A stretch of 58,533 nt of DNA, counting the filler, from Jimgerdemannia flammicorona (taxonomy: Eukaryota): assembly GCA_003990765.1 (NCBI GenBank). It is 3 parts of 3 records of this genome, joined end to end, with 100 filler letters (N's around TTAATTAATTAA, not from the genome) between each part and the next. Parts side by side here need not be neighbours in the genome. Positions count along the whole stretch, not along the records: positions 39,094 to 58,533 come from RBNJ01001938.1; 2 more parts are not named here. The stretch is one strand, 5' to 3'. Made by a program: the position numbers and the translations under genes. Position 1 is the first letter of the stretch. Every line of letters begins with the position of its first letter. A model generated the notes under the pieces. That model searched no databases and was not told the origin of the DNA. It saw nothing but the letters and a program-made list of their open reading frames with translations. Of this stretch, positions 2,700 through 52,050 are shown piece by piece.

Positions 2700-2700
<1 letters not shown>
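1400..2700 (-). mobile_element. Very AT-rich TE relic with possible LTR end and PBS
   Basis: Minus strand reads ...TCTTCACA-AT-TGGTATCTAGATC near 2316-2340 (LTR-end CA followed by a TGGTATC PBS-like motif). The rest is too decayed to read. Confidence 0.3.
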
Positions 2701-8160
<5,460 letters not shown>

Positions 8161-8164
8161 AAAA

Positions 8165-9600
8165 TATGATAGACTTCTTTATATTAGAAAGTGGACTAAA
8201 GTGAAAAAGAAATAAAGTTTACAATCTCTTAAAAGTAGCTTTAGAGCAGTTATTTCTCCTAAGTATTATAATCCTTTTTAGATCAAGTAGCTCTTGGTAG
8301 ACATATCTCTTGAAGTATAATAGGCAGACTTGTTTTTTGCTTTTCTTGACTTTTTGGACTGAGATTTATTCACTCTTATCTCTGGAGTATTTTATATAGT
8401 TGTGATTGCTATTTGGAGAAGAGAGTAACTGGGTATATCTACTGAGTATAGGTATGTCTGATAGATACAGATATATCCAATGGACATAAGTATGTCTGAT
8501 GGGCACAGGTGTATCCTCAGAATACAGATCAATAAATCTGATTTATTATTTTTAGCTAATTATAAGTAATAGTATATATGGGTAACTATACTATATTGAG
8601 TGTTCATATCATCTGGCTAGTGCTCTCAAACAAATTGAATCAATTTGAATCAAATTGAATTGAGAGTCATTTGAATTGAATTGAATTGAGGATTCTTCAA
8701 TTCAAATAAATTTCAAATCTGATTTGAATACTATTTTTAGAAATATAATAACTTGATGAAAACATGTCCAAACTTAACAATCTTTAACTTATTAGATTCA
8801 CCTTATATAGGGAAATCTAACAAACTAAAGACTGTTAAATTTGGACATATATTCATCAAGTTATTATATTTTGAAAATAGAATTTCAAATCAAATTAGCC
8901 TTTGATTCAATTTAAATTAAATTGAATTGGACCATTGATTCATTAGAAGCACTGCATCTGGCTATACTATACTATTTGCTCATCATAATATTTATCTACA
9001 GATTTATTAGTTTCTTCACTTTTTTGCTTTTGAACTATTTTAATCTAAGGTTTATTTACTTTAGATATTGGAGATATTTATATATACAAGTTTGCTAGCT
9101 ATATAATAGTTAAGACTTCTTTTTCTATAAGTCATCTTTTACAATTGTAAGATTTTAACATTTATAGGATTCTTATAATTGTGAGTTTCTTACAAGTATA
9201 AGATTCTTATCTATAAGATCAGGTGACTACTAACCATAATGCTATACTATATCAGGAATCAGATTTAGATACTATGATCAAATATCTATTCTCCTGATTC
9301 TTATTTCTAATTTAGATCAACTGTCAATATATATATAGTCTCTATTATTTATTTTGGTTCTGTAATTATAATTATACTATGTATCAACTATTATACTAAA
9401 CTTACTCTATAAATATAAATATAGTTAATAAGTAGAGTGAAATATTCTAGCAGATAGAAATATTAATAGATATATTGTATATAGACTGTCATTATGTTAT
9501 ATAAAAGATTATCATCTCCTAGAGATTGCATCTAGTACTTTGTAAATAATAAATTTATTACCTGACAAGAGTATTGTTGAAAAAAATCATCAGAAGATTT
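8165..9600 (-). mobile_element. LTR-like relic with short tandem repeats
   Basis: Minus-strand TATA-like TATATAAAAATACTC (~8385-8400), ~19-nt repeats GGGCACAGGTATGTCTGAT (8430-8525) and ~18-nt quasi-palindromic repeats (9135-9220). CpG-free until an abrupt switch at ~9620. Confidence 0.4.
8618..8954. mobile_element. hAT-family MITE (337 bp)
   Basis: Termini TAGTGCTCTC...AGAAGCACTG, perfect 8-bp TSD CATCTGGC (8610-8617 and 8955-8962), subterminal GAATT/GAATC pentamer arrays and a long internal inverted repeat (~8730-8880). Confidence 0.9.
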
Positions 9601-9619
9601 CATTTTATTTTTTATTTAT

Positions 9620-11140
9620 TTTGGCGCCGACTGTGACTCTCGTTATCGTCGTCCAATAACATGTCGGTATAATATCTCGGAGGAGACTTTCCCAAACACC
9701 TTTTCCTCGCCTCATGCTGAGGAACCATCTCTTGCCTGCAGTGTTGACAAGCATCATGTCATTTTCGTTATAATAAGCCGACATGTCCTCATTGTTTAAA
9801 TTTTCTGCGGCCTCCTCTTAGCCTTCGATGTCCGCTCCGCCTACTTCAGTAGATCGGACCTTGAGCTGGATCCGGAAATAAGCAGGCAGATGCTTCTGGA
9901 CCTTGGCGGGGATCTCAAGGCTTGGCTTGCTGATCGTCCTTTTTCACACTCGGACATTTTTGAATTGGGTGTGATGTATGTGTGTGGCTTAATGACTTAG
10001 GAACAATCAATTTCACACACTCTTCTTTGTCCTGCGTCCGATTTGTCAAACTGATGCACGAACTCACAGGTCATCTACGACTGCGACAGCGACGTGCCCC
10101 TCGAATAGCAAGGAGTGTTGGCTTATCCTTCTAGTCTTCGTAGAACCTGGTGACAGGATGGAAGTGTACATCAAGACCGTGAGGGGCAAGACTCTGCTGA
10201 TCCGCGTATTCAAATATGAAACGGTGGCCCGGTTAAAGTCCATCATAGAAACGATAGGGGGTAGATCAGCAACGGCTGATATTAACCGGCCGTCAATTAG
10301 ATGACGGACTCTCGCTCTCCGACTACAACATCACACCGGCGAGCACATTGTATCTTTTGTACCATTTCTGGGGCAGTGGCGGGCCAATCCCAAAGTTTGC
10401 CAACTTGTCCAATGAGAGCGGGCTTCGGTATCGCGCGTGGTCCAGGTCGGCGCCTAGATGGCGCACTGCAACCGATGGAAGGCAGGACATATCGTTTTCC
10501 TGTATATAGAAAACTCCCAACATTGCGTTTACCCTCCATTTATCCAGGGCACATGCACGAATCCCGCCTGTGCCGCTCATGGGCGCCGCGTTATCATAGC
10601 AAGGGGCAAAGTAACTTTGACTTCTTCTACGAATCTCACAAATTCAAAAGTCCCATATGCTGGAAGCTCGTCGAGCCCGCCTTCAGCAATACCTGGTGGA
10701 CCTTCCGCGGACTGAAGAAGCTCCCGAAACACCTCTAGAGTACGTTCAGGGTCCCTGACGGCACGCCGGGGACGCGTACACGCCTTCGACGAGTCTCAGA
10801 GTGGCGTCGCCGGATGGTTGAGACTCAAGACCCTGGTAAATTCGTGGAATCCCGAGGACGTGTGCTCTGTGTGCTTTGAGAAATCGGAACTCATGGAGAA
10901 GGGTGTCGGTAGTTGTAGTCATAGCTTGCATCCCGCGTACCGGAAGAAGTAGAGGAATGTGCAGGCGATGGAATTGGGGATACAGTGCACATTGTACCGC
11001 GAGCTGGATAGGAATAAGTGATTGTTTAGAAAGCGAGGAGGCTCTGCGGATGGAGATGGTCCGGCGAGTTTGTTGTAGCAGAAAGTTCCCCGAAGCAAAG
11101 CGTTCAATATGATTGTTTGAAATCCGAAAGACACGTCCAT
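9620..11140 (-). pseudogene. Fragmented unknown gene; C-terminal part weakly resembles a PD-(D/E)xK/Mrr-type nuclease
   Basis: CpG-rich, coding-like segments broken by stops and frameshifts. The last segment reads YFRIQLKVRSTEVGGADIEG*EEAAENL...MMLVNTAG, containing a QxK-like motif. Family assignment is speculative. Confidence 0.25.
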
Positions 11141-21061: not shown

Positions 21062-21549
21062 TATATAAGTTTGGTAGATCAGAAATTGAGAGCAATCCAG
21101 GTAGAGGTATTTGAGAATATTTGAGTATAAGAAGTACTAGAGAGACTCTATATAATTAATAGATAGAGAGAATGATATTATATATATAAAAGGATTACAA
21201 TTGCTGTAACTTAACTAGTGAAGTATCTAACTTAGATATAGATAGATTCAGTAGAGCTTATAATATATATAGATAACTATGTAATACTATTCTGAGATAG
21301 ATACTAAACTAAAAGATAAATATTGAACTAAAACTAGTACTAACATTTAAATTAAATAGGTGTGAAATAAAATAAATACTAAAACTGATACTAGTATTTA
21401 AATTATAATAGGACAAAACTGGTATAAACTGAGAAATATATTATCTTAAGATACTTAGGTTATGAGGAAACTAATTTATATGACTGTATAAATGTCTACA
21501 ATTTGGCCACTTTGCTGAAGTTTAAACTAAATTTATAACTATATTATAT

Positions 21550-24500
21550 TTTTTAATAAATTTAATATTTTAAGAACTTTATTAGTTTTTAGAGTCTTTT
21601 CAAAAACTTTTACAGTATATTGTATAATGTTATTTAATCTCAGATCTAATTAAGTAAGAGTTATGTTAATTTTAAAAGTCTTTGCAATAGCCTCTATACT
21701 ATTATTATTGATATTATTTACTCTTAAGTCTAATGAGATAAGAACTTTATTAGTTTTAAAAATATATATAATAGTTATTATATTTTTCTCTTTTATTACA
21801 TTTAATGATAGATCTAATGAGATGAGAGTTTTATTTATTCTAAGAGCCTTTCTGATGGTCTTTACACTCTTATTAAAGATGCCATTATTTTTTAGAACTA
21901 ATAATGAGAGAGTCTTATTAGTTTTGAGAACTTTTATAATAGTTTTTATACTCTTCTCTCTTATATTATTCATTCTCAGATTTAATAAGGTAAGGGTTTC
22001 ATTACTTTTGAGAGCTCTTATAATGATCTTTATACTACTTACTAAAGATATTATTTACTCTCAGATCTAATAATATAAGAGCCTTATTAGATTTGAGAAC
22101 TTTGTACTCTCCTCTCAGATGCAATTTGATGACAGATCTATTGAAGTATAGCTATTGTTAGTTTTAAGGGCTTTTGTGATGGCTATTGCACTCTCTATAC
22201 AAATGTGATTTGATAACAGATCTAATAAAGTGAGGATGTTATTACTTTAGAAGATTATTGTAATGGCCTTTATATCCTTATCAAAGATATAATTTGATAA
22301 TAGATTTAATAAAGTAAGGCTATTATTGATTTTGAGAGCTTCTGCAATAATCTTTGTATACTTATAGATGAAATTTGATGATAAATCTAATAAAGTGAGG
22401 ATATTGTTAGTTTTGACAGTCTTTGTAATGATCTTTACACTCTCCTCCAAGATATAATTTGATAACAGATCTAATGAAATGATAATATTGGTTTTGAGGG
22501 CCTTTGCAATGACCTTTGTGCTTTTCTTCCTGATGTTTTTTGATGATAGATCCAATGAGGTAAAAAGAAGATAGATATAGTAAATTTGCACTGATCATAC
22601 TCTCGAAGATCGACTCATTGCAAAAATGGTTTAGTCCAGGGCGAGATTATGTCAAGAGAATCCAGACAATAGTTACAGATCAGGATTACCTCCATCAGCA
22701 TTGTGGTGTCCAGTTAAAGGTACTTGAGGACTAAACAGTTGGGGTACCATTAAGAAAGGGGACCTGAAGCTACACCTCTTGCAGATTGGCACACTCTTTC
22801 ATTACTAGGTGTTTGAGAGATAGAAACTCTGCTGGAAACCCCTGAGATGGTGTGATCTTAAGAGATTCAATGGATTTGATCCAGGAAGATTTCTTGATAT
22901 AAGTCAAGAGAGTAAGCTGTGGACAGTAATTCAAGTTCAAGTACTCCAGGAAATTGCCACAGGCATTATAAAGGACACTAAATCCGGAATTGTTGAAGGC
23001 TTGGGCGCCCTGTAGATTGACACTAGTCAAGTGATGGCTACGGTCCTGAAATACTGAGGGTTTGAAATACTCTTTAATCAGATGGTAACTGTTGACAAAT
23101 TCCAGGCTTGTATGAGGAGTCTCATTAGCAAAGAGAACTTTGAGATTTTTTTTCTCCACCTCTGGAATTTGGGTGGCCATATTTCACTTTTTGTCTAGTA
23201 CCCATTCTCCTTCCAAACGCCCCATTTTCTGCTTGAATCTTTTGGCACAAGACCTGAAATCTCTCCAAGGCGTCTTGAGGTCCTGTTCTAAGCTCTTTGC
23301 GCTTCTTGTGATTTGCAATAGGTGCATAAATGTCAATCTCCAGAATCTTCAGCATTTCTTTGGTATTTATTGAAGTGATGGCGATACTTGCATTGCGGCG
23401 TCGATACAAATCATCGGTTACCATGCAAAACCTGCCCTTCAATGACCGAAGACTTCACCATAACTCTTAGTGGATGATGGTTGGATTTTGCAAAACCTCC
23501 CTTTGCAAGCGATGGGCTTTTCGATAGAGATTTTTCATGGATACATAGTGAGGGTAGCGGAGGATGCAAGACTGTGCATTTATACAGCAGTTGTTGTAGC
23601 AGATCTTCGGGAAAAAGTTTTTGATAAGTCTCTTCAACAATTTTCAACTCTTCCATCCAGGTGGTTAAAAATTCGTCAATCTCTAATATGCGAATCTGCT
23701 CTCTTACCACTGAGGGCAGAGGATCACACATCTGTGATAGACAAAGGTCAAGGTTTTGGCTTGCAACTGGGTGACAGCCTTAAAAGGAGCGCCAGCACCT
23801 TGTCCTTGATAAAGGACGCCGGGCAGAAAGGCGTGATCATTGTCTATAGGAATGAGGCGCTGGTTATCAGCGCTGATAATAAAGTTGTCTTCCTTGCTGT
23901 CTTCAGGATTAAGCAACATGGAGGCGACAATCATTCGACTTGTGAACACTGGATCTAGGTAAGCAAAGATGTCGTCGTTGTCCCAGACGGTATAAAGAAC
24001 ATTTCCTCTAACAGCTTGGCTCACGAGAACAGGGTAGGGGCCGTTCTTGGGGTTATGAAACATGAAGAGCTCGCAAAATGGAATATCTTGGAGATTCCAA
24101 CCACGCAAAAAGCGGGCGACGGCATATTCATAAACTGGAAGTTCCGGATAGGTTTTGAAGTAGAGCTTGGGGGTATTTTGCGGATAAAAGGTTACGGGGC
24201 TGCGTCCCGTGAGCGTTGTGTCAGCTTCAAACTGCCCTCGATGATTCAGGATGTGCCTACTGAGGTGGCGCTCGCCCATTAAAGCACATTTTACGTTCAA
24301 AGAGTACACCATCCGGTGCAGGACCACGGGGCAAAGCTTGAGCAATGGTGAGGCGCCATGCGAGTTGGGGATTGTGCGGCAGGAAGGGATCAAACATCCG
24401 GCCCAACGCCAGCGAGATGTCGGGGCCATATTGGAACGGATGGTTTTGCAGGTGCTGCTGGATCTCTTCCCAGAGATTGGCGGCGAGCTCGGAATTATTG

Positions 24501-33514: not shown

Positions 33515-34038
33515 CGGCTTTGACAATTAGCTCCGCGAGAAAGTTGTAAAATGTAGGAAGAATGAACTCTTGTCACGTAGGCAATTATTTATGAATAGCT
33601 CGTTACACAATCACTTCTCTCCGTATGCTGAACTCGTCACCACGCACCGTGTGCAACGCGCGTCGTGTCCAATACCAGCAGAGGTCGGAACCTTATCATT
33701 TTGGGGTTTGTCTAAAGCGTATACAGTCACAACTCGGCCGCACCTAAAATTAGCCATACCTAAAATTAACTGTAGGCAATGACAATTGCCTTTCGAGCCT
33801 AATAAGTGAAAATTAAGCGACCCACACACAATGATATTTAAAAGAGAATATAATGAAAAAACCATTTTAACTGTTAGTCTGTATTATAGGAAAATTTTCC
33901 TACAAAAAAAAAAAAAAAAATTATATAAAATTTTTAATAATTCTTTTACTAACTCATTTTTGGATTTTTTTTTCAATATTTCTCACTTTTTTTCAAAAAT
34001 AAATAAATAAAAAACAATTTTAGTATCATTATTATTAA

Positions 34039-34057
34039 TATATATATATATATATAT

Positions 34058-34092
<35 letters not shown>
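34039..34092. repeat. Compound (TA)n(GA)n microsatellite in AT-rich relic DNA
   Basis: Direct reading. Confidence 0.85.
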
Positions 34093-34095
<3 letters not shown>

Positions 34096-34540
34096 ATCTA
34101 TATCAAATTATAGATAATTAATTAAAAATATTATAAAACTATTTATACTAAGCTATATTAATTCAATACTATAATTAAGTTGTTTATAAAATTAGTAACC
34201 TTTATAGTTTATTGGTATTGATTTATTAATTGTTTTAATATCTTTAAAAATATTAGTTAATGAGATTTTAATTATATAAAAGATAAAACTACTCTCTTAA
34301 AATTAGTATATTTCTTATTATTAATCTTAAATTAAAATTAAATAAGTATTAAAATTAAATACTTTAAATAAATATTAAATCAACTTATTAATTAACTTAT
34401 AAGTAACTAAAATAATAAACTTTAGTTTACTATAATGTAATAAAACTATATACTGATAGAATTACTTCATTATAGATAATTAAGATGACTATTAGTCTTA
34501 AATTCCAAGTTCTTGAGAAAACACTGAGTTCTGAATTGCC

Positions 34541-37500
34541 TGTTATAGCAAAGTCCAAGTATTGCTTTTAGGTTTTGATCAGGTATAAGATACCATACTT
34601 ATATCCTAAGTTAATCAGACTTAGAATTGTTAATAAGTCAGATCTGAGATTTTTATAGTAAGAATACTACTTTATTCTTATGTTCAGAGAAAGTAGAGCT
34701 GAGATTGTAATTTACTCAGTATATAGAGTATTTATATATATTCAAAGCTATAACTAAATATAGTATACTAGGTATGTCTATATATAGTTATACTACTTTG
34801 GGTAACTATGACTACTAGTCAGAAATTCTATAGAAAATTTCATAGGAATTTATATAGAAATTTTTGCTAGAAATTCCAGAGACTTGTAACAATTCATTAT
34901 ATTCTTCTCTTCTTTGCTTGAGCCTACTCATTAGACTTAGCACTAAACTTTAGATATTTATCAAACTGAAAAACAGTATACTAGACTACTTGAAAAATGA
35001 TTTCACTCTATTATTCATCACTCAGATTAATAATATTCTCAGAAGATACTCTACAGAGGTGGTTAAGGACTTAGAGTTAAATGTAGAAGAGAATGTAGAG
35101 TCTTTTAATAACTATGTAAGTATGATAGTTGATGAAGAGATAGGCTCATTGTTTAGTAGTACTGAGGGTAGCTTGTTGATAGATAAGGTATCTTATCTTA
35201 TAGTACTTTTTGGATTCTTGTTGATATTGGAAGATCTAGAAATGCTATATTCTTTTAAGATATTATTGGGCTTCATTTGGGTCTGGGTCTTTAGAGATAT
35301 TTATATTAATAGATAGTAGTTCAGTAGAGTTTCATTAGTATTTAATTACTCTAAGAACTGCAGTAGCAATCTTATTCCTAACTTGTTCTCAGTATTATTG
35401 CTGGGTGCTTGGAGGAGGTGAGTTATCTTATGCAGGGTTATATTAGGATACTTATACTTCTTTTTCACTGAGGTTATTCAGAGATATAACTGTCTTTTGG
35501 AAATTCTATTGAAATTTCCATTATATTAGATATCTGTATCAGATTACTGTTTCTTTTATATTTAGCAATAGGTTGTCTTCTTTTTTTCAAGTAGTATTAT
35601 ATTCAGAATATCCTTTCCATTTTATGAGATAGTACTGGGTGGGCTTGGCAGCTCTTTCAAATTGATAATCCTTGTGATCTAGAATATGGTCAACTTTATA
35701 TTCTGACTATTGATCAATAATTATTAAACCTGGAGATAGCATAGTTCTTTCTTTGAAAGTATTTAAGATATATAGCTGAAGTTGAGATATATAGAATATT
35801 AGATGAATTCTTCCTAGTATTATTAGGAGATTTAACTTATATAACAGATTTATATTTTTTAAGAATTTTGAATGGTCCAATATAGTATAGTCTAGTTTCT
35901 TTTTTAGACCTATATTGCTTGTTAGATACTAAATACTGAGTAATACTTATTCTTCTTTTTTGTAAATGACTTTCCTTTTATTCTTATCAGTATATACTAT
36001 TTGTATTCTTTGTACTTCTATGAGAGTATCTTATACTTACTGAATATTACCTTATATAGTATCAGTAATTCCTTATGCTGCTAGTACTGTAGTTTGGATA
36101 GCAACTGTTGGAATTTATAGATATTGTCTATGGTGAAGTAGAATAGTGTTATCTTGATACTTATACTTGAGCTATTATTATAGATGAATTTAGCTAGAGT
36201 TAGCTTTTTGTCTCAATCATTTTGTTTGTAGCCACAGTAGATACTAAGTATTTATTTTAGGATTCAATTAATTCTTTCTATCTAGTTATTTGTTTATAGG
36301 TAGTATGCTGTAGACATTTTCAGTTATACTCCTAGACTCTTGAAGAGTATTTTCCAAAAGTTACTTGTGAACTTTGTATTTTGATCTGAGATAATTACTG
36401 ATAATAGTCTATGAAGGTAGAATATATTATTGATGAGTAGCTGAGCTATTTTTAGTACTGTTGCTGTGGTAGTTATTATAATAAAGTGAGTCTGCTTGCT
36501 GAGATAATTGATGAAGATAATAATTACATCTCTTTCCTTTTTAGTTTTTAGTAACTAAACAATGAAGTCCATTCTAATATAGTCCTAATTTTGAGTAGAA
36601 ATTGGTAGCAGTTGTAGAGTTCCAGCTGATACTTAATTGCTGAGCTTATACCTTTGGCAAATATTACAAGATACAATATAGTTCTTAATATTAGATATCA
36701 TTTTGAGCCAGTAGAAGTCTCAGGCAATATATTGATATATCTTATCAAAATTCATATATTTAGCTATAGGTATATATATCATAAAGTTCTTATAGGATTT
36801 ATAAATAGATGGGGGGTATCAAGGATCTAAATTCTTATATTATCAAGATACATATATCTATTTTGAACTGATATATTTTTATAGACTTTCTTCATGATAT
36901 TGTTGCCTTCTTCAAGGTTTTGTCTGGTAATTTTTTATATATTAGCATTCTTGGTATACTCCTTTTTAATCTTCTCAAATAGGCTAGTGATAATATTGCT
37001 AATTACTGTAAGATTATCTTTCTGTATACTTCAAGAGAGTGCATTAGCTATCTTATTCTTGGTTCTAGCAATGTGCTTGATTTTAATATTGAAGAATATA
37101 AGAATCTGCATCCATCAGATCTGTCTTTTAGTAAGGATTAGCTATGTCTGGACATATTAGAGTGTCTGATAGTTAGACTATAAAGTGAACTTTTTGTTAA
37201 GAAGAAAATATCATCATACTTATAGAGATCAGATGATAGTGAGGAGTTCTTTATCTTGTATTGTGTAGTTCCTTTTATACTTATTGAGTTTCTGAGATAG
37301 ATAGGTAATAGAGTATTTATATTATATTAGGATAGCTCTAATGATAATATTTGAGATATTAGTAGTAACTACAAAGGATCCTGTAGAGTTAGAGCTGATC
37401 AGAATCAGTATATCTGTCAGCATTCTCTTGAGGGTATTCATGACTAGAGTATATACTTCTGTTTATTCTTTTTTGATATTGGCTCCTTTTTTAATAAAAC

Positions 37501-38979
37501 TTATAAGTAGGGCAGTAATTGTGGAGAATTCTTAGATAAATCTCTGATAATATTCTGCTAGTCTATTGAATCCTCATAAAGACTTGAGAGTTTTTAAGAT
37601 GGGCCAATTATAGATTGTTTGAGTCTTTTTGGGGTCAATAACAATACTGTTTTCTAAGATAATATAGCCTAAGTATTTGATTTTCTTCTTGAAAAAGTGA
37701 TATTTCTTTCTTTTTATAAGAGCTTGTATTTTTGAAGTATGTTAAAAACTATTTATAAATATTGTTGATATATAATATTACTTGTACTATATCAGAATAT
37801 CATCTAGATAGACCAGAATAAATACTCTAAGATATTTTTGAAAAATATTATTCATTAGTATCTAGAAGGTTACTAGTATATTGGTAAGATCAAATAGTAT
37901 TATACAAAATTCATAATGTCCAAATCTTATTTAAAAGACTGTCTTGAGAATATTTTCTTTTTTGATACATATTTAGTAGTATCTAGATATAAGGTCAATA
38001 AATGAGAAGGTCTTGGTCTTATACACTTGGTTAAGTAATTCATCAATTCTTAGAAGTATATATTAGTTCTTGATAGAGATCCTGTTGAGTACTTGGTAAT
38101 TAATATATATGTAGAGCCTTCTATCCTTCTTACAGATAAAGAGAATTGGTGTACCATATAGTGATTTTGATGAATGGATGAGATCTTTGCATATTAGTTC
38201 TACTAATTGTTCCTTGAGAGTCTCTAGTTTAGGTTGAACTAATTGGTAGATTCTGTGATAAGGAGGGTCAGAACTGAGAATAGTTTCAATACTATATTCT
38301 ACTACTCAAACTGGTGGCAGTTTCTGAGATTTCTGAAAGATATCTTTATAATTCTTGAGTAATTCTTAGAGGTTGTCTTCTTTATCATCCTTATTCTTCA
38401 GAAGTTCAAAGAGTTCTTCATCATCCTCTTCTAGGATCTTCTTAACTATACATATATAGATATACTGGTCTGGTTTTAAATTAGCTTCTTCATTTGAATA
38501 GCAGAGATAATATCATATCTAGGCTTTGATTTCTTCTTGATATACTCAGGTTGTAACTTAATATCTCCTAGGGAAATAGTATTAGTTCACCAATCAATGT
38601 AGGGATTTTCCTGAGTGAGCCAGGATTTTCCAAGAATGAGATTGTATCCAGAAAGATGTGTAATGTAGAAAGTTTATCTTATAGTATAGTTTCTAAGTTA
38701 TAGAAGTGCATTCTTGCATATCTTGGAGAGTTTCTATATTACTCCATTACTGAATATAGTAATGTTTCCTTCTGAATTTCTTTGTATCTTAAGGTTGAAT
38801 TTATTGGTAGTTTCTTGATTGAGATAATATTTACTTGCCCTACTGTTAATCAAGACTTCAACAGTATTTCCTTTAATTTTTCCTTATAGATATATACATT
38901 CTGTATCAGTCTCTTATCTGACAGTGATTGTTTCTGGGGTAGTTTCTTCTTTCCAATCTTATACTTCTCCATCTTCATC
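34541..38979 (-). mobile_element. Chromovirus-type Ty3/gypsy element D (PR-RT-RH-IN-chromodomain, LTR-like end), heavily mutated
   Basis: Minus strand: protease-like LINSRAS (~38840), RT (YLDD at ~37800), RNaseH, integrase ending in GPFKI (~35870), chromodomain EYKVDHILDH...YYLIKWKGY (~35600-35710). LTR-like segment TGTTA...TAACA at 34541-34891. Confidence 0.85.
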
Positions 38980-39862
38980 ATTTTTTTTTTTTTNNNNNNN
39001 NNNNNNNNNNNNNNNNNNNNNNNNNNNNNNNNNNNNNTTAATTAATTAANNNNNNNNNNNNNNNNNNNNNNNNNNNNNNNNNNNNNNNNNNNNCCCCCCC
39101 TACCCCTTCTCTGTGAAAGACCACTTTGTCGAACACTATCCCCACCCTCCCACTACTCTGCTCACAGATCCTTACCACCAAACTGTGACGTCGTCCCCCC
39201 TGAGGACCCCAACCCACCCACCATCCAGTCAGCAGATCCCCCACCAGCTCCTCCCACCTTAATACTTTCTCTTGCAGCCCCAACTGCTGCCCCTCCTCAA
39301 ATACAAAAAGTCAATATCCTGCCAATCCCACCCATACTGCTAACACCCACCCTACAGTGAGCCAACTATCCCCCACCCCACCCACTAGCTGAGATCTTAA
39401 GTCCTCCCAGCGACCCCCCTCCCCCACCAGCCAACACTCCACACCCAGTCTATCCCCTATCTCAGCCCAAAATTCCCCCAAGACTGCACACTCTCTCAGC
39501 CAATATTCTGGTATCTGTATATGACCCCCAGCTTGCCCAACATCATAACACTCCTTGCAGTCAAATTGTCTACCCTCTACTAAATACTCCAAGCAGAAAT
39601 TCAGCATGACATTCCTCCACAACATTCTCCACCATACCACCCAGAACTTGGGAGGAAGCTACCTCTGTACCTCTGCACTCTAAGACCAGATGCCTACTCA
39701 GTCCCACTCCTCTCCAATTCCAACCACCTGCCAGCCACTTGGCCAAAGATCCTGGCCAAGCCCCTGCTGACACTCCACTCTCTCCCCAATATTGAATGTA
39801 GCCAGTGGAGTACCCCCCAGGAGCAGTCTATCCCAATGCCACATATTAGGCCCCCATGCCAC
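38980..39862 (-). mobile_element. L1/Tx1-like fragment (same family as 19549-21058), spanning the gap
   Basis: 39094-39862 is the reverse complement of ~20150-20910 with transitions. Poly(T) at 38980-38993 fits its tail. Confidence 0.85.
38994..39093. other. Assembly gap/linker (44N-TTAATTAATTAA-44N)
   Basis: Artificial spacer. Confidence 0.97.
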
Positions 39863-41357
39863 CCTGGAATAGTCTTGATGGCATGGTCTACTACTCATTT
39901 GGGAGGTAGGCCTTTTGGGAGTTTCTTTGGGAATATGTCTCAGAATTTCTAAAGTAGTGATCTGACATAGCTGTCAACTTTGGAAAAGTCTTCTTCAGAG
40001 TTCTCGGGTTCTCCTTTGGATGGGCAGATGGAGATAGCAAAGAGAGGGCATTTCTTGGCCAATTTCTTGAGTTGTAGCTTGTTGATGTAAGTGATCTTTG
40101 GTCCAGTATCACAGGAGTTGAGTGGGTTCTTTTCACTTTATAGTTTGAAGTTATGGCATCCTTTCTTAATAATCAGAGAATGATTTACCCAATCAATCAT
40201 GAGGTTCTCTTGTTTCAACCATAAGGTTCCAAGGATGATTTCATTGTCAGGAAGTGGTACAATCTGGAGGGTAACATGTACTCAGTAGTCACCAATTTGG
40301 AAGGATAGGTTGCAGACTTCCTTGCTGATAATATGTGAGGTTCTATTGGCTGTAGTAACTGCTTGAGTTTGTTGTATTGGGGAGGTGAAGACCTTGAGTC
40401 TGTTGGCTATTTCTTCATTGATGAAGTTGCCTGAGACACTACTGTCTATCATAATTTTGACAGGTACTTGATTGACAAAAGCTTGAAGTATAAGCAGTTT
40501 GTCTGATCCAATGGTGGGAATTTCGGTTATAGGAGCTTTTCTTCTATTGATTCTTCTTTGAGCCAGTTTATTGACATAAGAGAAGCAATCATCAATCATA
40601 TGAGAAGAGTACATTCCAATGCCATGGGGGTACCAGCCACTTAGTACATATCTGTCTTCGATTTTCTTATAGAATTATTCTTCCTTGCTTATGGTAGGTT
40701 GGGCTGGGGCCTTATTTGATGAGCTAAATCTTTTGGATCCTCAGATGGTGGCAGTAGTTCAGAAACTTCCTTGACTATCAGGGTTGACTTGATCTTCTCA
40801 AATAGGATCTGGGCAATACAGAAACCAATAAGGATCTTGAAGGGTGTCCAACTGTGGTTTTGGATGAGGATAATAATTTTGCCTGTATAATCTTCATCAA
40901 TAACTCCTCCTTCTACTGAGAGTCCTTTCAATGCTAGGCTGCTGTGACAGCATATTCTTCCAACATATCCTTCAGGAATTTGGATGCTGATTCCTATGTA
41001 GACTTGCTTGACTTCTCAGTTGGAAACTGTAGCTTCTTCGGCTACATACAGGTCATATCCAGCTGCTCTTTGACTTCCTTTGGTTGGGGCCTTGGCAGTT
41101 TGCCTTAACTTGATAAAGTCTAGTGTTCTGGTGGTCAGGTTGTTGAGGTGGTGCAGAGTGGTAACAGTTGCTCATATTGCTGTTCAGGGTTTTTGGTTAG
41201 AGCAGGCACTGGCCATGTATCCTATCTTTCGGCAATAGAAGCATGCTCTGCTTCTTTGAAGTTCATTTCTTTCTCCTTCAGTGAGTTTCTTGAAGATACT
41301 CAGCTGGATGGGTTTATGATTTCTGGGTGTCCAAGAGGTGGATGTGGAGGGGGCTCA

Positions 41358-44300
41358 TATAAGAGGGTTGCTTTTTAGGGTAACCATTATATAGTTCTGA
41401 AAGGGTTTTCTGGAAGTTCTAGATATTCTGGAAGACTGTTTTCTTATGGTCAAGATCAATTTCATATAGAGTACATCCTCTATGCTTATTGATTTCAAGA
41501 TTGAGTTGATGTCTCAACCAAAGTCCTTTTTTCGAACTAGTTCTGGATATTCAGGATTTTCTGTATTTCAGAAAGTTTAAGAAACTAAGACCAGCTTAGT
41601 TGAATTGGCATATCGCTGCAGACAATACCCAATTAGAAAATTTCATGATAGAGTTAGGAGTAGGACCTAATGGGGAGCAGGTTTACTTAAGAGTAGTTTG
41701 TGGGTTATTAAATAGGTTTATTTACTATTCATGATATTGCTATACTAGGAGTAGTTGTATAAAGGGATATTGTGGGGAAGTGCTTAGGAGTTGTGTTCAG
41801 ATTGTTCAAGTGTTCAAGTCTGAGATTCTGAGGTCTGAGGGAGAGGGTATTTATATTAGTGAGGGGCTATCTGGACTATACTAGATATAGATGTAGCATT
41901 AAGTGTCTTACTGAGTCAGAATGCAGTTATATAGTACAAGTGTGATCTGATATATCAAGAGATCATCTGACTACTGAGTCAGTTCACAGTCATATCATAT
42001 AAGGCTAATCTAACTATACTATGACTGCTAAGCTATTTATAGGTTTAGACACTATCTGGGTAGTCTTTGATGACATCACTATTGATAACATCATTGCTGG
42101 CAAAGTCTGAGCAGTTTTCTGACTTCTGACATCATCAGTTTCAAGGTGTCATCACTTCTATCTCTTGCAAGATTAAGGCTGTTCTTGGTGGCAGTAGTTG
42201 TATAAGGATAACAGGTCTTGGTTCTTTTTTTTTTTAGTCTGCTGGTATATTTGCAAGAACTGACCATTCTTGTCTAGGGTGAGGGCTCCCAATGTTGCGA
42301 CTGGGGGTTTGAACCTCTCGAAAATGATATTTTCTGTAATCTGAGGCAATTTATAGTAGTAATATCTATCATGTGGATGGCTTGAGATTGATTTCGATGA
42401 TGTTGGCTTTTTTGAGTTTAGATGAAGCATCCATCACTCTCTAATAGAGGTAATACAGATAGAGCAAACAGAGTTGTTCAAATGTATTTTGCTTTTGCTA
42501 AGTAATGAGGTCTTGTATAGTTGTAGTGTATTCTGGTCTTGAGTTAATAAGTATAGTTCATGAACCTTTTGGTAGATGAGATAGGGTTCTTCTTGTCTCG
42601 ATTTGAGTTTGGTACTTTCAGTTTCCTTTTATAATAGTACAGTATACTATAACTAGTTATAGTGGTTCAGAGTTAGTCTTGTAGTTATAGTACTTCTTCT
42701 AGTATTCTTGTATCTTGGTAGTGGGTTCTCATACTTGCTGGTATATTTCATATAACCAGATGATCTCTTCAGTAACTTGTTTTGTAGTCTCACATGTAGT
42801 TTTCAAATTAGTTCTGAGGATGCTATGCAATTTTGGTGGCTTGGAAGTTGTGTGCTTACAACTCTCCCCTTTTTAGCTTTTGACATCCTTGTCAGGGCTT
42901 TCTAATTTGTTCTGGTGTTGTTGTACCATTTGGATGGTTCTTGTGGCTATATTTGTTGAGGATTTGTTCAACTTTGTATTCTTCTTGGTCATTAATAATG
43001 ACAGATACAGGTAGTTCTGTGGTTTGGTTCAGAAATGTGTCTTGGGCTTTCTAGAGTAGTGGTCTGACATGGCTGTCAACTTTGGAAAAATCTTCTTCAG
43101 AGTTCTCAGGTTCTCCTTTAGATGGGCGGATGAAGATGGCAAAGAGAGGGCATTTCTTGGCCAATTTCGTAAGTTGTAGCTTGTTGATGTGGGTGATCTT
43201 TGGTCCAGAGTTACTAGAACTGAGTGGGTCCTTTTTACCTTGCAGTTTGAAGTTATGGCATCCTTTCTTGATGGTCAGAGAATGGTTTACCCAATCGATC
43301 ATGGGGTTCTCTTGTTTCAGCCATGGGATTCCAAGAATGATTTCATTGTCAGGAAGTGGTACAATTTGGAGGGTAATATGTACTTGGTAGTCTCTAATTC
43401 AGAAGAGTAGATTGCAGACTTTCTTACTAATAACATGTGAGGTTCCATCAGCTATGGTGACTGCTTGAGTTTGTTATACCAGAGAGGTGAAGACCTTAAG
43501 TCTGTTGGCTGTCTCTTCATTGATGAAGTTGCCTGAGGCACTACTGTCTATCATAATCTTGACAGGTGCTTGGTTGACAAAAGCTTTAAGAGTAAGCAGT
43601 TTGTCTGATCCAATGGTGGTGATTTTGGTTGTAGGAGCTTTCCTTCTGTTGGTTCTTCTTTGAGCCAGTTCATTGATATAAGAGAAGCAATCATCAATCA
43701 TTTGGGAAGAGTACATTCTAATGCCATGGGGGCATCAGCCACTTGGTACATATCTGTCTTCGATTTTCTTATAGAATTGTTCTTCTTTGTTTGTAGTAGG
43801 TTGGGCTGAGACCTTGTTTGATGAGCCAAATTCTTTGGATCCTTGGATGGTGGGCAGTAGTTTAGGGACTTCCTTGACTGTCAGGGTTGATTCGATTTTT
43901 TTGAATAGAATCTGTACAATGCAGAAACCAATAGGGATCTTGAAGGGTATCCAACTGTGGTTTCGGATGAGGACAATAATTTCACCTGTATAATCTTCAT
44001 CAATGACTCCTCCTTCTACTGAGAGTTCTTTCAATGCTAAGCTGCTGTGACAGCATATTCTTCCAATATGTCCTTCAGGAATTTGGATACTGATTTCTGT
44101 ATAGACTTGCTTGACTTCTCAGTTGGAAACTGTAGCTTCTTTGGCTGCATACAGGTCATATCCAGCTGCTTTTTGACTTCCTTTGGTTGGGGTCTTAGCT
44201 GTTTGTCTTAACTTGACAAAGTCCAGTATTCTGGTGGTCAGGTTATTGAGGTGATACAGAGTGGTAACAGTTGCTCATGTTGCTGTTCAGAGTTTTTAGT

Positions 44301-47300
44301 TGGGGCAGACACTGGCCATGTGTCCTGTCTTTCGGCAATAGAAGTATGCTCCACTTCTTCAAAGTTCATTTCTTTTATCTTTGGTGAGTTTCTTGAAGGT
44401 ACTTGGCTGGGTGGGTTTATGATTTCTGGGTATCCATAAGGTGGATGTGGAGGGAGCTCGGGATGCCTCATACTTGGGCTCTTCTTTCTTAGTCCAAGTC
44501 TTTTCCTTGTTGTTGAATTGTCTTAGGGGCAGAATTGGTCCAGCTGTTAGGATTTGCTTGACCATAGTCTTGATTCTTGCTAGGCACCATTGTTGGTGAT
44601 CACAACCAACTGGGTAGCCTTGTTCATGGATTTTTCTTATAAGCCATTCAGGCAGAGCATCAAATAAATGGTCTACTCTTATACCATTTTGTGCTTCATC
44701 ATTGGTGATATATCCTAGGCCAACAGTGTTCAGGAGTGACTCAAGTTTTGTATAGAAGGTTTTGAATTCTTCTTTGCCATGTACATTAAATTTGAGATTG
44801 CGGAGTTTTACTTAAGATTCAGCAATCATAGTTTCACTGTGGTATTGGGCAATTATGAGTTGTTTGAGTTCAGGGGCTACGGATGGGCTCTATATCCTGG
44901 GGCATTGTTTGCTGTATTCTGAGCAACTACTGCAGGTTGGGTATCCTATGTGAGGGGTTTTTCAGGAAGGATTCGCCACCATTCTTCAGCAGGTCCTCAG
45001 AAGAATATAACAACTCAGCAGACATAGGCTATAGTGATAGCAAAGAGTTGTTCCAGAGTGTGGTCTTGATTGTTTGTCAGAACATGGTCAGCAACTTGCT
45101 CATTGGTCCATTGATTGGCTTTGAAGTTGGTGTCAACTATACTAATAAAGCTTTGGACTTCTTGTGCAGTACCATTGAAGGTAGGTAGGCTCAGATTTTT
45201 GGTAGGTCGGGTCTGTTTGGCTAAGGCAGTAATGGTGGCTGCCATTATCGCTATCTGGGCTATGAGGTCTAGAATCTGTTGATTCACCATATTGTTTCTG
45301 AAGGTGATTGGACTACTGGTAGTGGTGTTACTGGTACTACTTGAGGTACTGGTGTAGAGTGTGAGGGTGTTCTTTGGGTCTGTGTAAGATGCTGGAGTAG
45401 TAGTTGTGGGTCTGGAGTAAGGGCTTGATAGATAGCTGTTTGTTGCTGTGTAGGTATATTCTATCCTGATGGAAGTGCATCTCCTTCAGTGGTGTATCCA
45501 GGATCAAATTCACTAAGATACTCCTCTTCTTCTTCAGTTTGGTCCCCATGTAATTGGGTTTGCTCAGCATCAAAGTAGACAGAATCAGTGGTATATCTGA
45601 TTTCAGATGGACTTAATTCAAAGTCAAGTTCAGGTTCAGTATTGGTTTCAGATTTAGGTAGAGCTGTAGCAGGGCCTGCTTCTGGTTCAGAGTTAGGTAG
45701 TTGATGAAGGATTTCTCTTACTTCTTCTTTAAGAATATAGCAGGCCTTGCTGTTCTAGAATCGATAGTATAGTGTGGTCTTGGTTCTGGTATAGTGAAAA
45801 TCAGTAGAGTTGAGCCACTTGGCTACAGAGGCTTGGGCTTCATGAGGAACTAAGACTAGAAAGACTGCTGCTGGTTGTCCTAAGTCGCTCAGATTTGTAG
45901 AGCTGACAAAACTCTTATTGAGAAGAGTAAAGAAGGCTTCTATAAGACCTTCTTCATCTTGACTTGCTGGGTGTAGAGCAAGGAGTTCAGTGAATAAGGT
46001 CTCATCTATTTGCTGATTTAACTGGAGTATTTCTTTCTTCGAATAAAGCTTGTCCTACTTATTGTAGGTATGGAGGTCAAATTGTCCTTGTATGTCAGGT
46101 TCAATTCTCTCTAGATTGTCAGATGGTTCAGGATAAATTCCAGTTCAGAGGTTGGGCTTTATACCAACTTGTAGAAATTTGCAGAGGGGTTTGTAACAGG
46201 GTGAGGAAGTATCTTGAAGCAAAATTGGATTGTAAACCGCTGCTACCAAGTTGTAAGAGGGTTGCTTTTTAGGGTAACCATTACATAGTTCTGGAAGGGT
46301 TTTCTGGAAGTTCTGGATATTCTGGAAGACCGTTTTCTTATGGTCAAGATCAATTTCATATAGAGTATATCCTCTATACTTATTAATTTCAAGATCAGGT
46401 TAACATCTCAACCAAAGTCCTTTTTTCGGACTAGTTCTGGATGTTCAGGATTTTCTATATTTCAGGAAGTTCAAGAAACTAAGACTAGCTTAGTTGAATT
46501 GGCATATCGCTGCAGACAATACCCAATTAGGAAATTTTGTGATGGGGTTAGGAGTGGGACCTAACGGGGAGCAAGTTTACATAAGAGTGGTTTATGGGTT
46601 ATTAAATAGATTTATTCACTATTCATAATATTGCTATACTAGGAGTAGTGGTGTAAAGAGATATTGTGAGGAAGTATTCAGGAGTTGTGTTCAGATTATT
46701 CAAATGTTCAAGTCTGAGATTCTGAGGTCTGGAGGAGAGAGTATTTATACTAGTGAGGGGCTATCTGGACTATGCTAGATATGGATGTAGTACTAAGTGT
46801 CTTGCTGAGTCGAAATACAATCACATAGTACAAGTGTGATCTGATATATCAAGAGATCATCTGACTGCTGAGTCAGTTCACAGTTATGTTGTATAAGACT
46901 AATCTAACTATACTATGACTGCTAAGCTATTTATAGGTTTAGATACTGTCTGGGTAGTCTTTGATGACATCACTATTGATAATATCATTACTGGCAAAGT
47001 CTGAGCAGTTTTCTGACTTCTGACATCATCAGTTTCAAGGTGTCGTCACTTCTATCTCTTGCAAGATTAAGACTATCCTTAGTGGTGGTGGTTGTACAAG
47101 GATAATAGGTCTTGGTTCTCTTTTTTTTTGATCTGCTGGTACATTTGCAAGGACTGACCATTCTTGTCTAGGGTGAGGGCTCTCAATGTTATGGCTGGGG
47201 GTTCAAATCTCTTGGAAATGATATTTTCTATAATCTGAGGCAATTTCTAGTAGTAATATCTGTCACATGGATGGCTTGAGATTGGTTTCAACAATGTCAG

Positions 47301-47754
47301 CTTTCTTGAGTTCAGATGAAGTATCTGTCACTCTCCAACAGAGGTAACACAGATAGAGCAAACAGAGTTGTTCAAATGTGTTTTGCTTCTGCTAAGTAAT
47401 AAGGTCTTGTATAGTTGTAGTATATTCTGGTCTTGAGTTAATAAGTACAGTTCATGAACCTTTTGGTAGATGAGATAGGGTTCTTTTTGTCTTGATTTGA
47501 GTTTGGTACTTTCAGTTTCTTTTTGTAATAGTACAGTACACTATAACTAGTTATAGTAGTTCAGAGTCAGTCTTGTGGTTGTAGTACTTCTTCTAGTATT
47601 CTTGTATCTTGGTGGTGAGTTCTTGTACTTGCTGGTATATTTCATGTAACCAGATGATCTCTTCAGTAACTTGTTTTATAGTCTTACATGTGGTTTCCAA
47701 ATTAGTTCTGAGGATACCATGTGATTTTGGTGACTTAGAGGTTATGTGCTTATA
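41358..47754 (-). mobile_element. Gypsy family C, inner non-autonomous copy nested in the gag of the outer copy
   Basis: Two 1503-bp LTRs (41358-42860, 46252-47754), 5-bp TSD GCTCA (41353-41357, 47755-47759), PBS TGGTAGCAGCGG (46237-46248), PPT AAAAGGGGAGAGT (42861-42873). Internal order is gag-dUTPase-PR, then a direct junction (~43050) to a chromodomain remnant (EEYKVEQILN). RT, RH and IN are absent. Confidence 0.93.
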
Positions 47755-50239
47755 GCTCAGGATGCTTTATACTTGGGTTCTTCCTTCTTGGTCCAAGTCT
47801 TTTCCTTGTTGTTGAATTGTCTTCAGGGCAGAATTGGTCCAGCTATTAGGATTCACTTGACCATAGTCTTGATTCTCACCAGGTACTATTATTGGTAATT
47901 GCAATCAACTGGGCAGTCTTGTTCTCAGATTTTTCTAGTAAGCTATTCAGGCAGTATATCAAATAGATGGTCTGCTCTTGTATCATTTCGTGCTTCATCA
48001 TTGGCAATATATCTCAGGCCAATGGTATTCAAGAGTGATTTGAGTTTTGTACAGAAGGTTTTAAATTCTTCTTTGTCATATATATCAAATTTGAGGTTGT
48101 GGAGTTTTACTCGAGATTCAGCAATCATGGTTTTGCTGCAGTATTGAGCAATTATGAGTTATTTGAGTCCAGGGGCTGCAGGATGGGCTCTATATCCTGG
48201 GGCATTATTTGCTGCATTCTGAGCAACTACTGCAGATCGGGTGTCCCATGTAAGGGATTTTTCAGAAAGGGTTCACTACTATTCTTCAGCAGGTCCTCGA
48301 AAGAATATAACAACTCAGTGGACATAGGCTGTGGTGGTAGCAAAGAGTTGTTCCAGAGTGTGGTCTTGATTGTTTGTCAGAACACAGTCAGTAACTTGCT
48401 CATTGGTCCATTGATTGGCTTCAAAGTTAGTGTCAACTATACTAATAAAGCTTTGGACTTCTTGTGTAGTACTATTGAAGATGGGTAGGCTTAGATTTTT
48501 GGTAGGTTGGGTCTGTTCAGCTAAGGCAGTAATGGTTGCTGCCATTATGGCTACCTGAGCTATGAGGTCTAGAATCTATTAGTTTGCTATATTATTTGCT
48601 AGAGGTAGTTGGACTACTGGTAGTGGTATTACTGGTACTACTTGAGATACTGGTGCAGAGTATGAGGGTGTTCTCTGGGTCTGTATAAGTTGCTGGAGTA
48701 ATAGTTATGAGTTTGGAGTGGAGGCTTGATAGATAGCTGTTTGTTGCTGTATAGGTGTATTCTGTCTTGATGGAGGTACTTCTCCTTCTATAGTATATCC
48801 AGGATTGAATTCACTAAGATACTCCTCCTCCTCTTCAGTTTGGTCCTTATGTAATTGGGTTTGCTTGGTATCAAAGTAGACAGAATCAGTTATATCTGAT
48901 TTCAGATGGACTTAATTCAAAGTCAAGTTCTGGTTCAGTATTAGTTTCAGGTTCAGGTAGGGCTGTAGCTGGGCCTGCTTCTGGTTTGGGATCAGGTAGT
49001 TGATGAAGGGTTTCTCTTGCTTTTTCTTTAAGAATATAGCAGGCCTTGCTGTTCTGGAATTAGTAGTATAGTACAGTCTTGGTCCAGGTATGGTGAAAGT
49101 CAGTAGAGTTGAGCCACTTGGCTATAGAGGCTTGGGCTTCATGAGGAACTAAGGCTAGAAAGACTGCTGCTGGTTGTCCTAGATCACTCAGATTTATAGA
49201 GCTGACAAAACTCTTGTTGAGAAGAGTAAAGAAGGCTTCTATAAGACCTTTTTCATCTTAACTTGCTGGGTGTAGTGCAAGGAGTTCAGTGAATAGGGTT
49301 TCACCTATTTGCTAGTTTAATCAGAGTATTTCTTTCTTTGAATGAAGTTTGTCCCACTTGTTATAGATGTGGAGGTCAAATTGTTCTTGTACATCAGGTT
49401 CAATTCTCTCTAGATTGTCAGATGGTTTAGGATAAATTTCAGTTCAGAGGTTGGGCTTTATACCAACTTGTAGGAATTCTCAGAGGGATTTGTAGTGGGG
49501 TGAGGAAGTGTCTTGAAGCAGAATTGGATTGTAAACCACTGCTACCAAGTTATAAGAGAATTGCTTTTTAGAGTAACTGTTACATAGTTCTGGAAGGGTT
49601 TTCTGGAGGTTCTGGATATTCTGGAAGACTGTTTTCTTATGGTTAAGATCAATTTCATATGGAGTATATCCTCTATGCTTATTGATTTCAAGATTGGGTT
49701 GACATCTCAACTAAAGTCCTTTTTCAGACTAGTTTTGGATATTCAGGATTTTCTATATTTCAGGAAGTTCAAGAAACTAAGACCAGCTTAGTTGAATTGA
49801 TATATCGCTGCAGACAATACCCAATTAGGAAATTTCATAATAGGGTTAGAAGTGGGACCTAACAGGGAGTGGATTTACTTAAGAGTGGTTTGTGGATTAT
49901 TAAATAGGTTTATTCACTATTTATGATATTATTATATATACTAGGAGTAGTTGTGTGAAGGGATATTATGGGAAGTGTTCAGGAATGTTCTTGTGTGTTC
50001 AAGTCTGTTCCAGTCTGAGATTCTGAGGTCTGGAAGAGGGGGTATTTATACTAGTGAGGGGCTATCTAGACTATACTAAATATGGATATAGCACTAAGTG
50101 CCTTGCTGAGTCGGAATGCAGTCACATAGTACAAGAGTGATCTGACATATCAAGAGATCGTCTGAATGCTGAGTCAGTTCAAAGTCATGTCATATAGGGC
50201 TAATCTAACTATACTATGACTGCTAAGCTATTTATAGAT

Positions 50240-51699
50240 TTAGATGCTATCTGAGTAGTCTTCGATGACATCACTATCGATAACATCATCTCTGATGAAG
50301 TAGTCATCCAGGAAGAGTAGTTTGCAGATTACTTCTCCTTCTTGGCTAAGGTAGTAATATATTAGGACTTTGTTGCTGTCCCACAGGATAGCATCATCTG
50401 TCTCATATGCTGGATAAGATGTTAGTAGGTGAAGGAGTAGTGTATTATCTTTGCTTTCATCAGATTCACTATCTGCATACCTTCTATAAGTTACAATACT
50501 ATGAGTCATGTAGTTGTAGTTAGTGCTCTCAACAAATCGAATCAAGGGTCCAATTCGATTTGAAGTTCGATTCGAACCTTAATTTTCAAAATATAATAAC
50601 TCGACGAAAACTCATCCAAATTTAACGTATTTTAGCTTGTTAGATTCACTGTATTAATGTGATTCTAACAAGCTAAAGTATGTTAGATTTGGATGAGTTT
50701 ATGCTGAGTTATTGTATTTTGAAAATTAGGGTTTGAATCAGACCCTCAATTCGATTCGACTTTTGATTCAATTCAAATTGATTTGAATTGAAAAATCCCC
50801 AATTCGATTCGACTCGTTTAACCCTCAATTTGATTCAATTTGAATTGATTTGACTCATTTGAGAGCACTAGTTATATGTAGTATGCTGACAGCTGTGGTT
50901 TATATGGCTCATACTTAGGTGGTGGAGTGATTGGTTCAATCTCAAGGATTGTCTGAAGGTATAGGTTGTGTTCTCTAGTCTCTTCATTGTAGTTGAAGTA
51001 GTCGGGAGTGAACGTGGGTTGGTATTCATATCAGTGGTCATTGTCTCAATAAGTCTCATATGTAGTTATGAACTATTGTAAGTTCATTGACAAGATTGGC
51101 AGCATGATCAGAGTTGGTAGAGATTCTTGGCTTGAGGTCATGTTGGCATCAAAGGGATCATTGTCTTCTGCTTCATTTTTGTCAAATCAAATTATGTTGT
51201 AGATATCCTTCATAGCATATCTGACTTAAGACATTTGTAGGATATGGTCATCAGGGTATAGGAAGGTTTTGTCTGTGGTTTCAATATACTTGAGGTAATT
51301 GTGGTTGAGTTCTTATATCATGTCATTGATTTGGCCATAGGACAGGGTAGCAATCATTTTACTGATAGTAACTTGGAGGTGGGGAATAAAGGTACTATAC
51401 TCATAGAAGAGTTCTCGGTGTTTGCAGGCAATGAGCTTCTGGTATTGAGACATCTGAGTGATATCTGTATCATGGTGGTGTTCGACCATGTCTTCCAGGA
51501 GGCAGCCGATCTGATAGTAGCTTGAGATTTGTCTGATTTGGTAGGCCTCAGTAAGCATGTTCAGGGCATTCCATCAGGCTTCCACAAAGTAGAGGGATGC
51601 CAGGCTATAGATATTCATAAGGGGCAGAGGGGGTGTAGCTCAGTTGACAATAGCATTCCAAATATCAGTACAGATGCAGTTATAGATCTTGGTGGTCAT
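50240..51699 (-). pseudogene. LTR-embedded accessory ORF of unknown function (~370 codons after removing the MITE)
   Basis: ACACAAAC-ATG at 51699 with a TATA-like run at 51769-51779. One frame continues across the 350-bp MITE with several TAA/TGA/TAG stops. Similar to the ORF at 57393-58250. Confidence 0.6.
50521..50870. mobile_element. hAT-family MITE (350 bp), same family as 8618-8954
   Basis: Perfect terminal inverted repeat TAGTGCTCTC...GAGAGCACTA, TTCGA/GAATT pentamer arrays and an internal inverted repeat (~50570-50740). TSD not clean. Confidence 0.88.
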
Positions 51700-52050
51700 G
51701 TTTGTGTGTTTGGAAGTTGTGGTTGTTGTTTGTTTTGGTTCTCTGTTTCAACATATCTTGGTGCTCAGTATATATATATTTGGTCCTGATTGGTAAGATT
51801 CCATTTATGTGAATCTTATATTCTGTGACTTTGTATTGACTCAGCTTTGTAATCAGGCAGATTATTTCCAAATTTGTTTGGAGGTCACATGTGATTTCAG
51901 TGGCTTGTTCAGAGGGTGATGTGTGATTTCAGTGGCTTAGAGGTTATACACTTACACTTATTTATATTCTTTTACAATTACTCATATTTCTTTAGACTTT
52001 CTCTAGTATTATCAAAGTAAGTAGAGAGAGCTTTAGTTTTTAGAGTAATC

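Follow-up and report, generated by a model that had tools for sequence, protein, structure and literature searches.

Repeats in the genome of Jimgerdemannia flammicorona (Endogonales) are decaying by C>T transitions that fall most heavily on CpG and extend to CpA and CpC, a pattern that is RIP-like in outcome without being a member of RIP. The observation itself is real, and the repeat decay is read as a further form of repeat mutagenesis linked to methylation, the methylation being presumed from sequence features. The starting point was a window of 58,533 nt, filler included (three joined parts of assembly GCA_003990765.1), in which an earlier note had read a RIP-like signature from one pair of LTRs; it had made the point conditional on a host in the Mucoromycota and not the Pezizomycotina, and J. 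flammicorona is such a host. Protein matches bear this out: the top hits of the window methyltransferase are J. flammicorona proteins, one of which aligns to the genome at 92-98% per exon, and a DNA methyltransferase frame of the genome shows 100% identity to a J. flammicorona protein. The LTR pair belongs to an element nested in an older member of the same family:

41358..47754, minus strand: inner LTR element, recognised by two LTRs and a target duplication
41353..41357: left copy of the 5-bp target-site duplication GCTCA
47755..47759: right copy of the target-site duplication GCTCA
41358..42860, minus strand: inner-element 3' LTR, 1,503 nt, subtype A of the family, its terminal CA now reading TA on the element strand
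42861..42875, minus strand: polypurine tract before the 3' LTR, seen in the sequence
42876..46233, minus strand: internal region, 3.4 kb, stop-interrupted, with a gag-like part, a dUTPase and a protease-like motif
46234..46251, minus strand: likely primer-binding site, starting TGG just inside the 5' LTR and common to the internal-flanked copies
46252..47754, minus strand: inner-element 5' LTR, 1,503 nt, its terminal TG now reading TA on the element strand
39932..41357, minus strand: left part of an older same-family copy, the target of the inner-element insertion
47760..51956, minus strand: right part of the older copy, with a subtype-B LTR at its end
49551 to ~51956, minus strand: subtype-B LTR of the older copy, split by a MITE at 50520-50872
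19449-19548 and 38994-39093: N runs with a TTAATTAATTAA spacer, gap fillers and not biology

Since the GCTCA duplication flanks both LTRs, the pair was identical at insertion, as standard retroelement biology has it. The dUTPase inside the inner element lies at 43735-44118 (-), the gag-like part is a putative assignment by position with no Pfam match, and an ARAGORN search of the window for the primer tRNA returned no tRNA. The internal region is without ~2.65 kb present in longer family members, presumably RT/integrase, and this stretch is missing in most A-type elements; LTR subtypes A (1,503 nt) and B (~2,050 nt) have ~737 nt in common and differ in the remainder. A dUTPase is an uncommon cargo in LTR retrotransposons, and it is encoded by two different LTR elements of the window, the other at 18499-19500 (+). 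The 353-nt MITE with terminal inverted repeats is present at 50520-50872 and at 8617-8913, with 12 CpG retained in the copy within the old LTR and 0 in the copy at 8.6 kb.

The full 1,503-nt alignment of the inner LTR pair contained 143 differences, 140 transitions and 3 transversions, and 0 indels, in keeping with the equal, indel-free LTRs described earlier. About 14 differences had been counted by hand over the first ~160 nt, mostly at CpG and CpA/TpG; the number is exactly 14 in the first 160 nt, all transitions, of which 13 are at these sites (8 CpA, 5 CpG) and 1 at CpC. Per-cytosine rates over the whole pair were 32/44 at CpG, 70/216 at CpA, 26/126 at CpC and 12/224 at CpT, and the older LINE-like pairs of the window had the same context order with more numerous transversions. 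The contrast between nearly CpG-free repeat DNA and CpG-normal gene DNA held as well, with 2 CpG in 1-9600 vs 359 in 9600-15650. Two old repeat blocks mark it:

1..9620: old repeat block at a CpG o/e of 0.01, with a sharp edge and the first CpG past it at 9625
33850..38990: old repeat block with no CpG, the last CpG at 33818 and the next only at 39130

The switches in CpG content, which had been called abrupt, are sharp at 9625 and 33818 and graded at the boundary at ~22.6-23.5 kb. Likewise, the TpA richness ascribed to the repeats applies to the old ones (o/e 1.03-1.10) and not to the inner element (0.87) or the element at 16.5-19.4 kb (0.63), genes having 0.76-0.82. The RIP indices of the inner element (TpA/ApT 0.98, (CpA+TpG)/(ApC+GpT) 1.22) did not trip the usual RIP thresholds. 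Repeat DNA also harbours a U6 snRNA copy at 52185-52288 (+) (Rfam, 76.4 bits) whose conserved core has four changes, each C>T or G>A; this makes it a likely pseudogene struck by the same process.

For the family-wide spectrum, the best 40 of 4,763 and the best 40 of 1,809 candidate matches to two LTR pieces were taken, a best-scoring sample and therefore biased to similar copies. From 30 self-alignments, 20 were kept as end-to-end pairs of one element on the basis of spacing and identity (one of them, L093, extends ~300 nt beyond the LTR), and 10 that were nested, short or older were left out. The 20 LTR pairs contained 2,144 transitions vs 42 transversions in 26,825 sites, a Ts/Tv of ~50 that is inflated by the pair selection, as the excluded rows had Ts/Tv of 3.5-17. 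Rates by context were 808/1300 at CpG (0.62), 847/3798 at CpA (0.22), 352/2463 at CpC (0.14) and 122/3847 at CpT (0.03), giving the order CpG >> CpA > CpC > CpT, and non-CpG sites made up 1,321 of the 2,129 scored transitions. At the trinucleotide level CAY exceeded CAR and CCT exceeded CCG, with CAG and CCG below CAY and CCY. The CpA rate was equal between strands (0.227 and 0.221), and the CpG changes were mildly strand-skewed (369 vs 439 of 650).

Column tallies over 61 LTR copies and 42 internal copies gave the direction of change, which is C>T: true CpA columns held 17.6% T and CpC columns 10.8%, vs 0.4-0.7% for T>C and 0.2-0.3% for transversions. The spectrum is thus skewed outside CpG too, and the C>T process in repeats reaching beyond CpG, which the earlier note had inferred from its hand count, stands. 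Hidden CpG was ruled out as the source of the CpA changes, since the 17.6% refers to CpA columns without G in any copy. Internal-region rates (CpA 0.172, CpG 0.43) matched those of the LTRs. The progenitor was CpG-rich, with 57 CpG sites per LTR, of which 369/2,433 survive in the LTR copies, and 625/3,141 survive in the internal copies, so that 80-85% have been destroyed. Each element of the family has its own set of changes and intact CpG ranges from 2% to 49% between elements, while the load is common to the whole element (intact CpG 16/56, 18/56 and 28/102 in the element on contig C1491; 5/57, 5/57 and 15/101 in that of the window), and CpG survival falls with CpA load (rho -0.78 and -0.66). 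The C>T load does not increase with private transversions plus T>C (rho -0.49 and -0.42 in internal copies and ~0 in LTRs, from small counts), and it is thus not a simple clock. Per-cytosine hazards computed from the tallies were ~0.9 at CpG, 0.19 at CpA and 0.11 at CpC vs ~0.005 for T>C, i.e. elevations of ~200-fold, ~40-fold and ~20-fold.

Tandem repeats inside host genes are affected as well. A multi-copy LRR gene family, present in the window at 21542-26200 (-) and on contigs C10753, C8027, C8691, C3198, C6533 and C156, combines a core without Pfam matches with an LRR array of 84-nt period and 0.4-3.3 kb, in which C>T erosion is variable. The array of the window gene is the following:

21542..22564, minus strand: LRR array of the host gene, 84-nt period, CpG-free, 25% GC

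The C>T excess in this gene is limited to its array end and declines over ~1 kb into the unique gene part. Among the seven array-bearing paralogs, four arrays are CpG-depleted (o/e 0, 0.06, 0.40 and 0.52 vs 0.84, 0.93 and 0.99), three of these four with CpG-normal flanks, and erosion is absent from the array of greatest regularity (period identity 77%). Eroded arrays with CpG-normal flanks imply that tandem repeats can start the process with no transposon next to them, so that a trigger by pairing or small RNA has a place.

Three DIM-2-like methyltransferase genes were identified, on contigs C8187, C11271 and C3657, all with the catalytic PCQ motif. The C5-methylase family search of the genome returned C8187, C3657 and two DNMT2 fragments and missed C11271, which was added by DUF7893 and protein searches. 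C8187 has RFTS, DUF7893, BAH and methylase domains, its best PDB match is DIM-2 (136 bits vs 92 for DNMT1; entries 9BAP/9BAQ, which we take to be Neurospora DIM-2), and its GT-AG introns are spliced out in X1 and X2, two sequencing runs presumed to be RNA; these domains and the splicing indicate an intact, expressed DIM-2-type gene. For the N-terminal frame of C11271 the PDB entry taken as DIM-2 was the sole match. C3657 is nearly tied between DIM-2 and DNMT1 (123 vs 116 bits), and in a tree of 80 of 150 proteins, with 10 relatives named and no RID or DNMT1 outgroup, it forms a long-branched group with proteins of Glomeromycota, Basidiobolus and Mucorales, next to ascomycete Dim-2. An exon-wise, non-exhaustive genome search, made with no RID query, found neither a RID among its loci nor a canonical DNMT1; a weak search for a separate DNMT1 through the RFD domain matched only C11271, and for P0028 the ESM Atlas gave no distinction between DNMT1 and DIM-2.

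The reading that we prefer, at a probability of roughly 0.55, is DIM-2-type methylation of repeat chromatin with assisted C>T conversion, one site at a time. Putative DIM-2-type writers would methylate repeat-rich chromatin domains, and the methylated cytosines would turn into T far faster than by ordinary decay, enzyme-assisted or poorly repaired, as with the Dim2 of Zymoseptoria. On either strand cytosines would be lost singly, CpG fastest, then CpA and CpC; the target would be set by sequence location (transposon blocks, some tandem arrays) and not by copy-copy pairing, with spreading from targeted domains of up to ~1 kb, and the timing would be independent of the sexual cycle. The basis is the spectrum with its C>T direction, the unclustered changes, the element-wide load, the one-sided change in dispersed duplicates (below) and the three DIM-2-like genes. 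Several points speak against it: CpG is the first target here and is spared by Zymoseptoria Dim2, a tandem-pairing trigger would explain the four of seven eroded LRR arrays equally well, CpG changes are mildly strand-skewed, and the C>T load is not clock-like. A more specific proposal, which we put forward tentatively, is that a RID-less repeat mutator of the Endogonales evolved from expanded, fast-evolving DIM-2 paralogs, converting C enzymatically in CG and CHH and seedable by tandem arrays inside host genes. If true, it kills transposons, causes LRR receptor-like genes to erode or diversify, and is missed by k-mer- and index-based RIP screens.

The same repeat methylation could also act through spontaneous 5mC deamination only, given a very low background rate in long-lived, dormant nuclei, an explanation that is possible and, on the present evidence, doubtful. 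It suits changes that are independent, unclustered and two-stranded, with CpG first and with histone copies graded from light to heavy, and no dedicated mutator gene was identified. However, hazards of 20-200-fold over T>C seem more than passive decay would give, short of a very low background mutation rate; in animals, methylated CpG is elevated ~10-15 fold. Loss of TDG repair was ruled out as a simple explanation, because a gene for a TDG-type G:T glycosylase is present, its activity being predicted from sequence.

A homology-pairing defence, RIP- or MIP-like, acting around the sexual cycle, weak per round and favouring linked or tandem repeats, is improbable. It would be consistent with the Ts/Tv of ~50, with the eroded LRR arrays in CpG-normal flanks, and with the finding that the 80 best-scoring matches contain no family copy above 94% identity to the query pieces, where near-identical copies may have collapsed in the assembly. 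Near-pure C:G>T:A change concentrated in repeats and fading into the flanks is shared with RIP of Neurospora crassa as described in the available text (PMC7296669, PMC11969663), and DIM-2 there contributes to RIP of old heterochromatic repeats (PMC11969663, same qualification). That the process works like RIP is nevertheless not supported: the first target is CpG and not CpA, and single-strand clusters, which account for ~92% in Neurospora according to the accessible part of the report (PMC7296669), were not found. In 40 LTR copies the strand split of non-CpG changes was not overdispersed (chi2 25.9, 40 df), no adjacency or clustering excess was seen at these changes, and simulation rejected a mean strand-exclusive cluster >= 1.25; runs and clustering tests at CpG were discarded, as their null allows both strands of one CpG to mutate. 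A long series of weak RIP rounds, each leaving a single mutation, would be compatible with these data. The LTRs showed no excess over the sequence between them, which is itself a dispersed repeat, the standard RIP indices were untriggered, and the search described above found no RID.

Duplicated genes bear on pairing, since a homology trigger would strike both copies. Seven parent-copy histone pairs, duplicates of 600-860 nt, were compared in 8 segments, drawn from 4 parent regions and so not fully independent; T/A-side differences numbered 13 in the parents, which lie in CpG-normal DNA, vs 263 in the copies, which lie in CpG-poor DNA, with 13 transversions. At sites without amino-acid change the split was 12 vs 172 (10 vs 161 minus a frame-unassigned pair), and as the parents are spared also at silent sites, selection on the parent is not the explanation. 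In a separate histone-bearing repeat family, in which every copy is CpG-reduced, the split was less one-sided (17:20, 24:76 and 42:147). The pair C19024/C16947 was again one-sided, with 4 vs 108 over 3.7 kb. An 8.2-kb gene duplicate that is 95% identical (C1887/C5419) had an ordinary spectrum of 60:61 transitions and 60 transversions, and its CpG-free end 31:26 with 10 transversions. The LRR-gene family retains duplicates of 2-8 kb that are 88-97% identical, have a Ts/Tv of 1-2.5 in most cases and lie near 0.85 in CpG o/e; some of them could be alleles, though ~10 copies exist. Large gene duplicates thus survive in Jimgerdemannia, in contrast to Neurospora. EF1-alpha was set aside as a duplicate test because it has 3 matches only in the genome. 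Histone pseudogene copies are numerous in repeat DNA (contigs C549, C28274, C1376, C2694, C13283, C14943 and C10146), and two of them are intron-less relative to the C830 gene.

An APOBEC-like cytidine deaminase on retroelement cDNA or transcripts is very unlikely: it would suit transition-only changes and the mild CpG skew, but changes that set the two LTRs of an element apart postdate insertion, the CpA rates are strand-equal, and targets other than retroelements (the MITE, histone copies, LRR arrays and the U6 copy) are changed as well. An artefact of DNA damage or assembly is scarcely credible, for although the assembly is fragmented into 35,354 contigs, the boundaries track repeats, gene paralogs of the same assembly have Ts/Tv of ~1.5-2, and every element carries its own change set.

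Assisted conversion of methylated repeats has a close counterpart in Zymoseptoria tritici, where, in the portions of the study at hand, Dim2-dependent mitotic C>T change in repeats is >98% at CpA with CpG spared (PMC8016269). The two have in common a DIM-2-type gene, C>T change confined to repeats with prominent CpA>TpA, and, presumably for Jimgerdemannia, no need of a sexual cycle. They differ in that Jimgerdemannia has 80-85% of CpG destroyed and CpC also changed, against a CpA-specific process, does not belong to Dikarya and encodes three paralogs of DIM-2 type. Phycomyces blakesleeanus, of the same subphylum and with DIM2 and DNMT1, carries transposon 5mC in CG and CHH and not in CHG (PMC11258239, PMC7862722), which matches the mutation order in Jimgerdemannia; the available parts of these reports describe methylation and not hypermutation, and Phycomyces has DNMT1, where the non-exhaustive search of Jimgerdemannia found no canonical one.

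As shown in its accessible part, a kingdom-wide screen of scaffolds over 50 kb found recent RIP signatures in four ascomycete classes only, and scored as no_rip both Phycomyces and J. flammicorona, the latter with 23 k-mers enriched in non-coding DNA, a number that none of the other 27 Mucoromycota rows shown exceeds (PMC12543289). Transposons of J. flammicorona are degraded at RIP-level Ts/Tv despite a 'no_rip' score. RIP-like indices outside Dikarya are on record for Entomophthorales in the text available (PMC11105155), and a search mostly of freely accessible papers found no description of the present signature in Endogonales.

MIP of Ascobolus (PMC13297926) is methylation induced premeiotically, and CpG hypermutation of repeats is reportedly found in Basidiomycota and some early-diverging fungi, following Clutterbuck 2017. 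Jimgerdemannia resembles these systems in CpG-first loss, expandable gene families and, possibly, tandem repeats as targets, and departs from them in its large non-CpG share (1,321/2,129) and a Ts/Tv at RIP level.

If DIM-2-type methylation alone suffices, RIP may have arisen from an older mutator that needed no pairing, an idea that is testable because three candidate enzymes are named. In this genome LTR divergence overdates insertions >tenfold, and the decay accounts for the death of transposons in a 231-Mb repeat-rich genome whose large gene families are kept.

The two methyltransferase genes of the window, at 32246-33546 (-) and 14107-14598 (+), were ruled out as DNA methyltransferases, both being Methyltransf_25, a family greatly expanded here with 144 genome matches; the former is spliced in runs X1 and X2. 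The window also encodes an intron-free alpha/beta hydrolase of 336 aa and ~59% GC at 28794-29804 (-).
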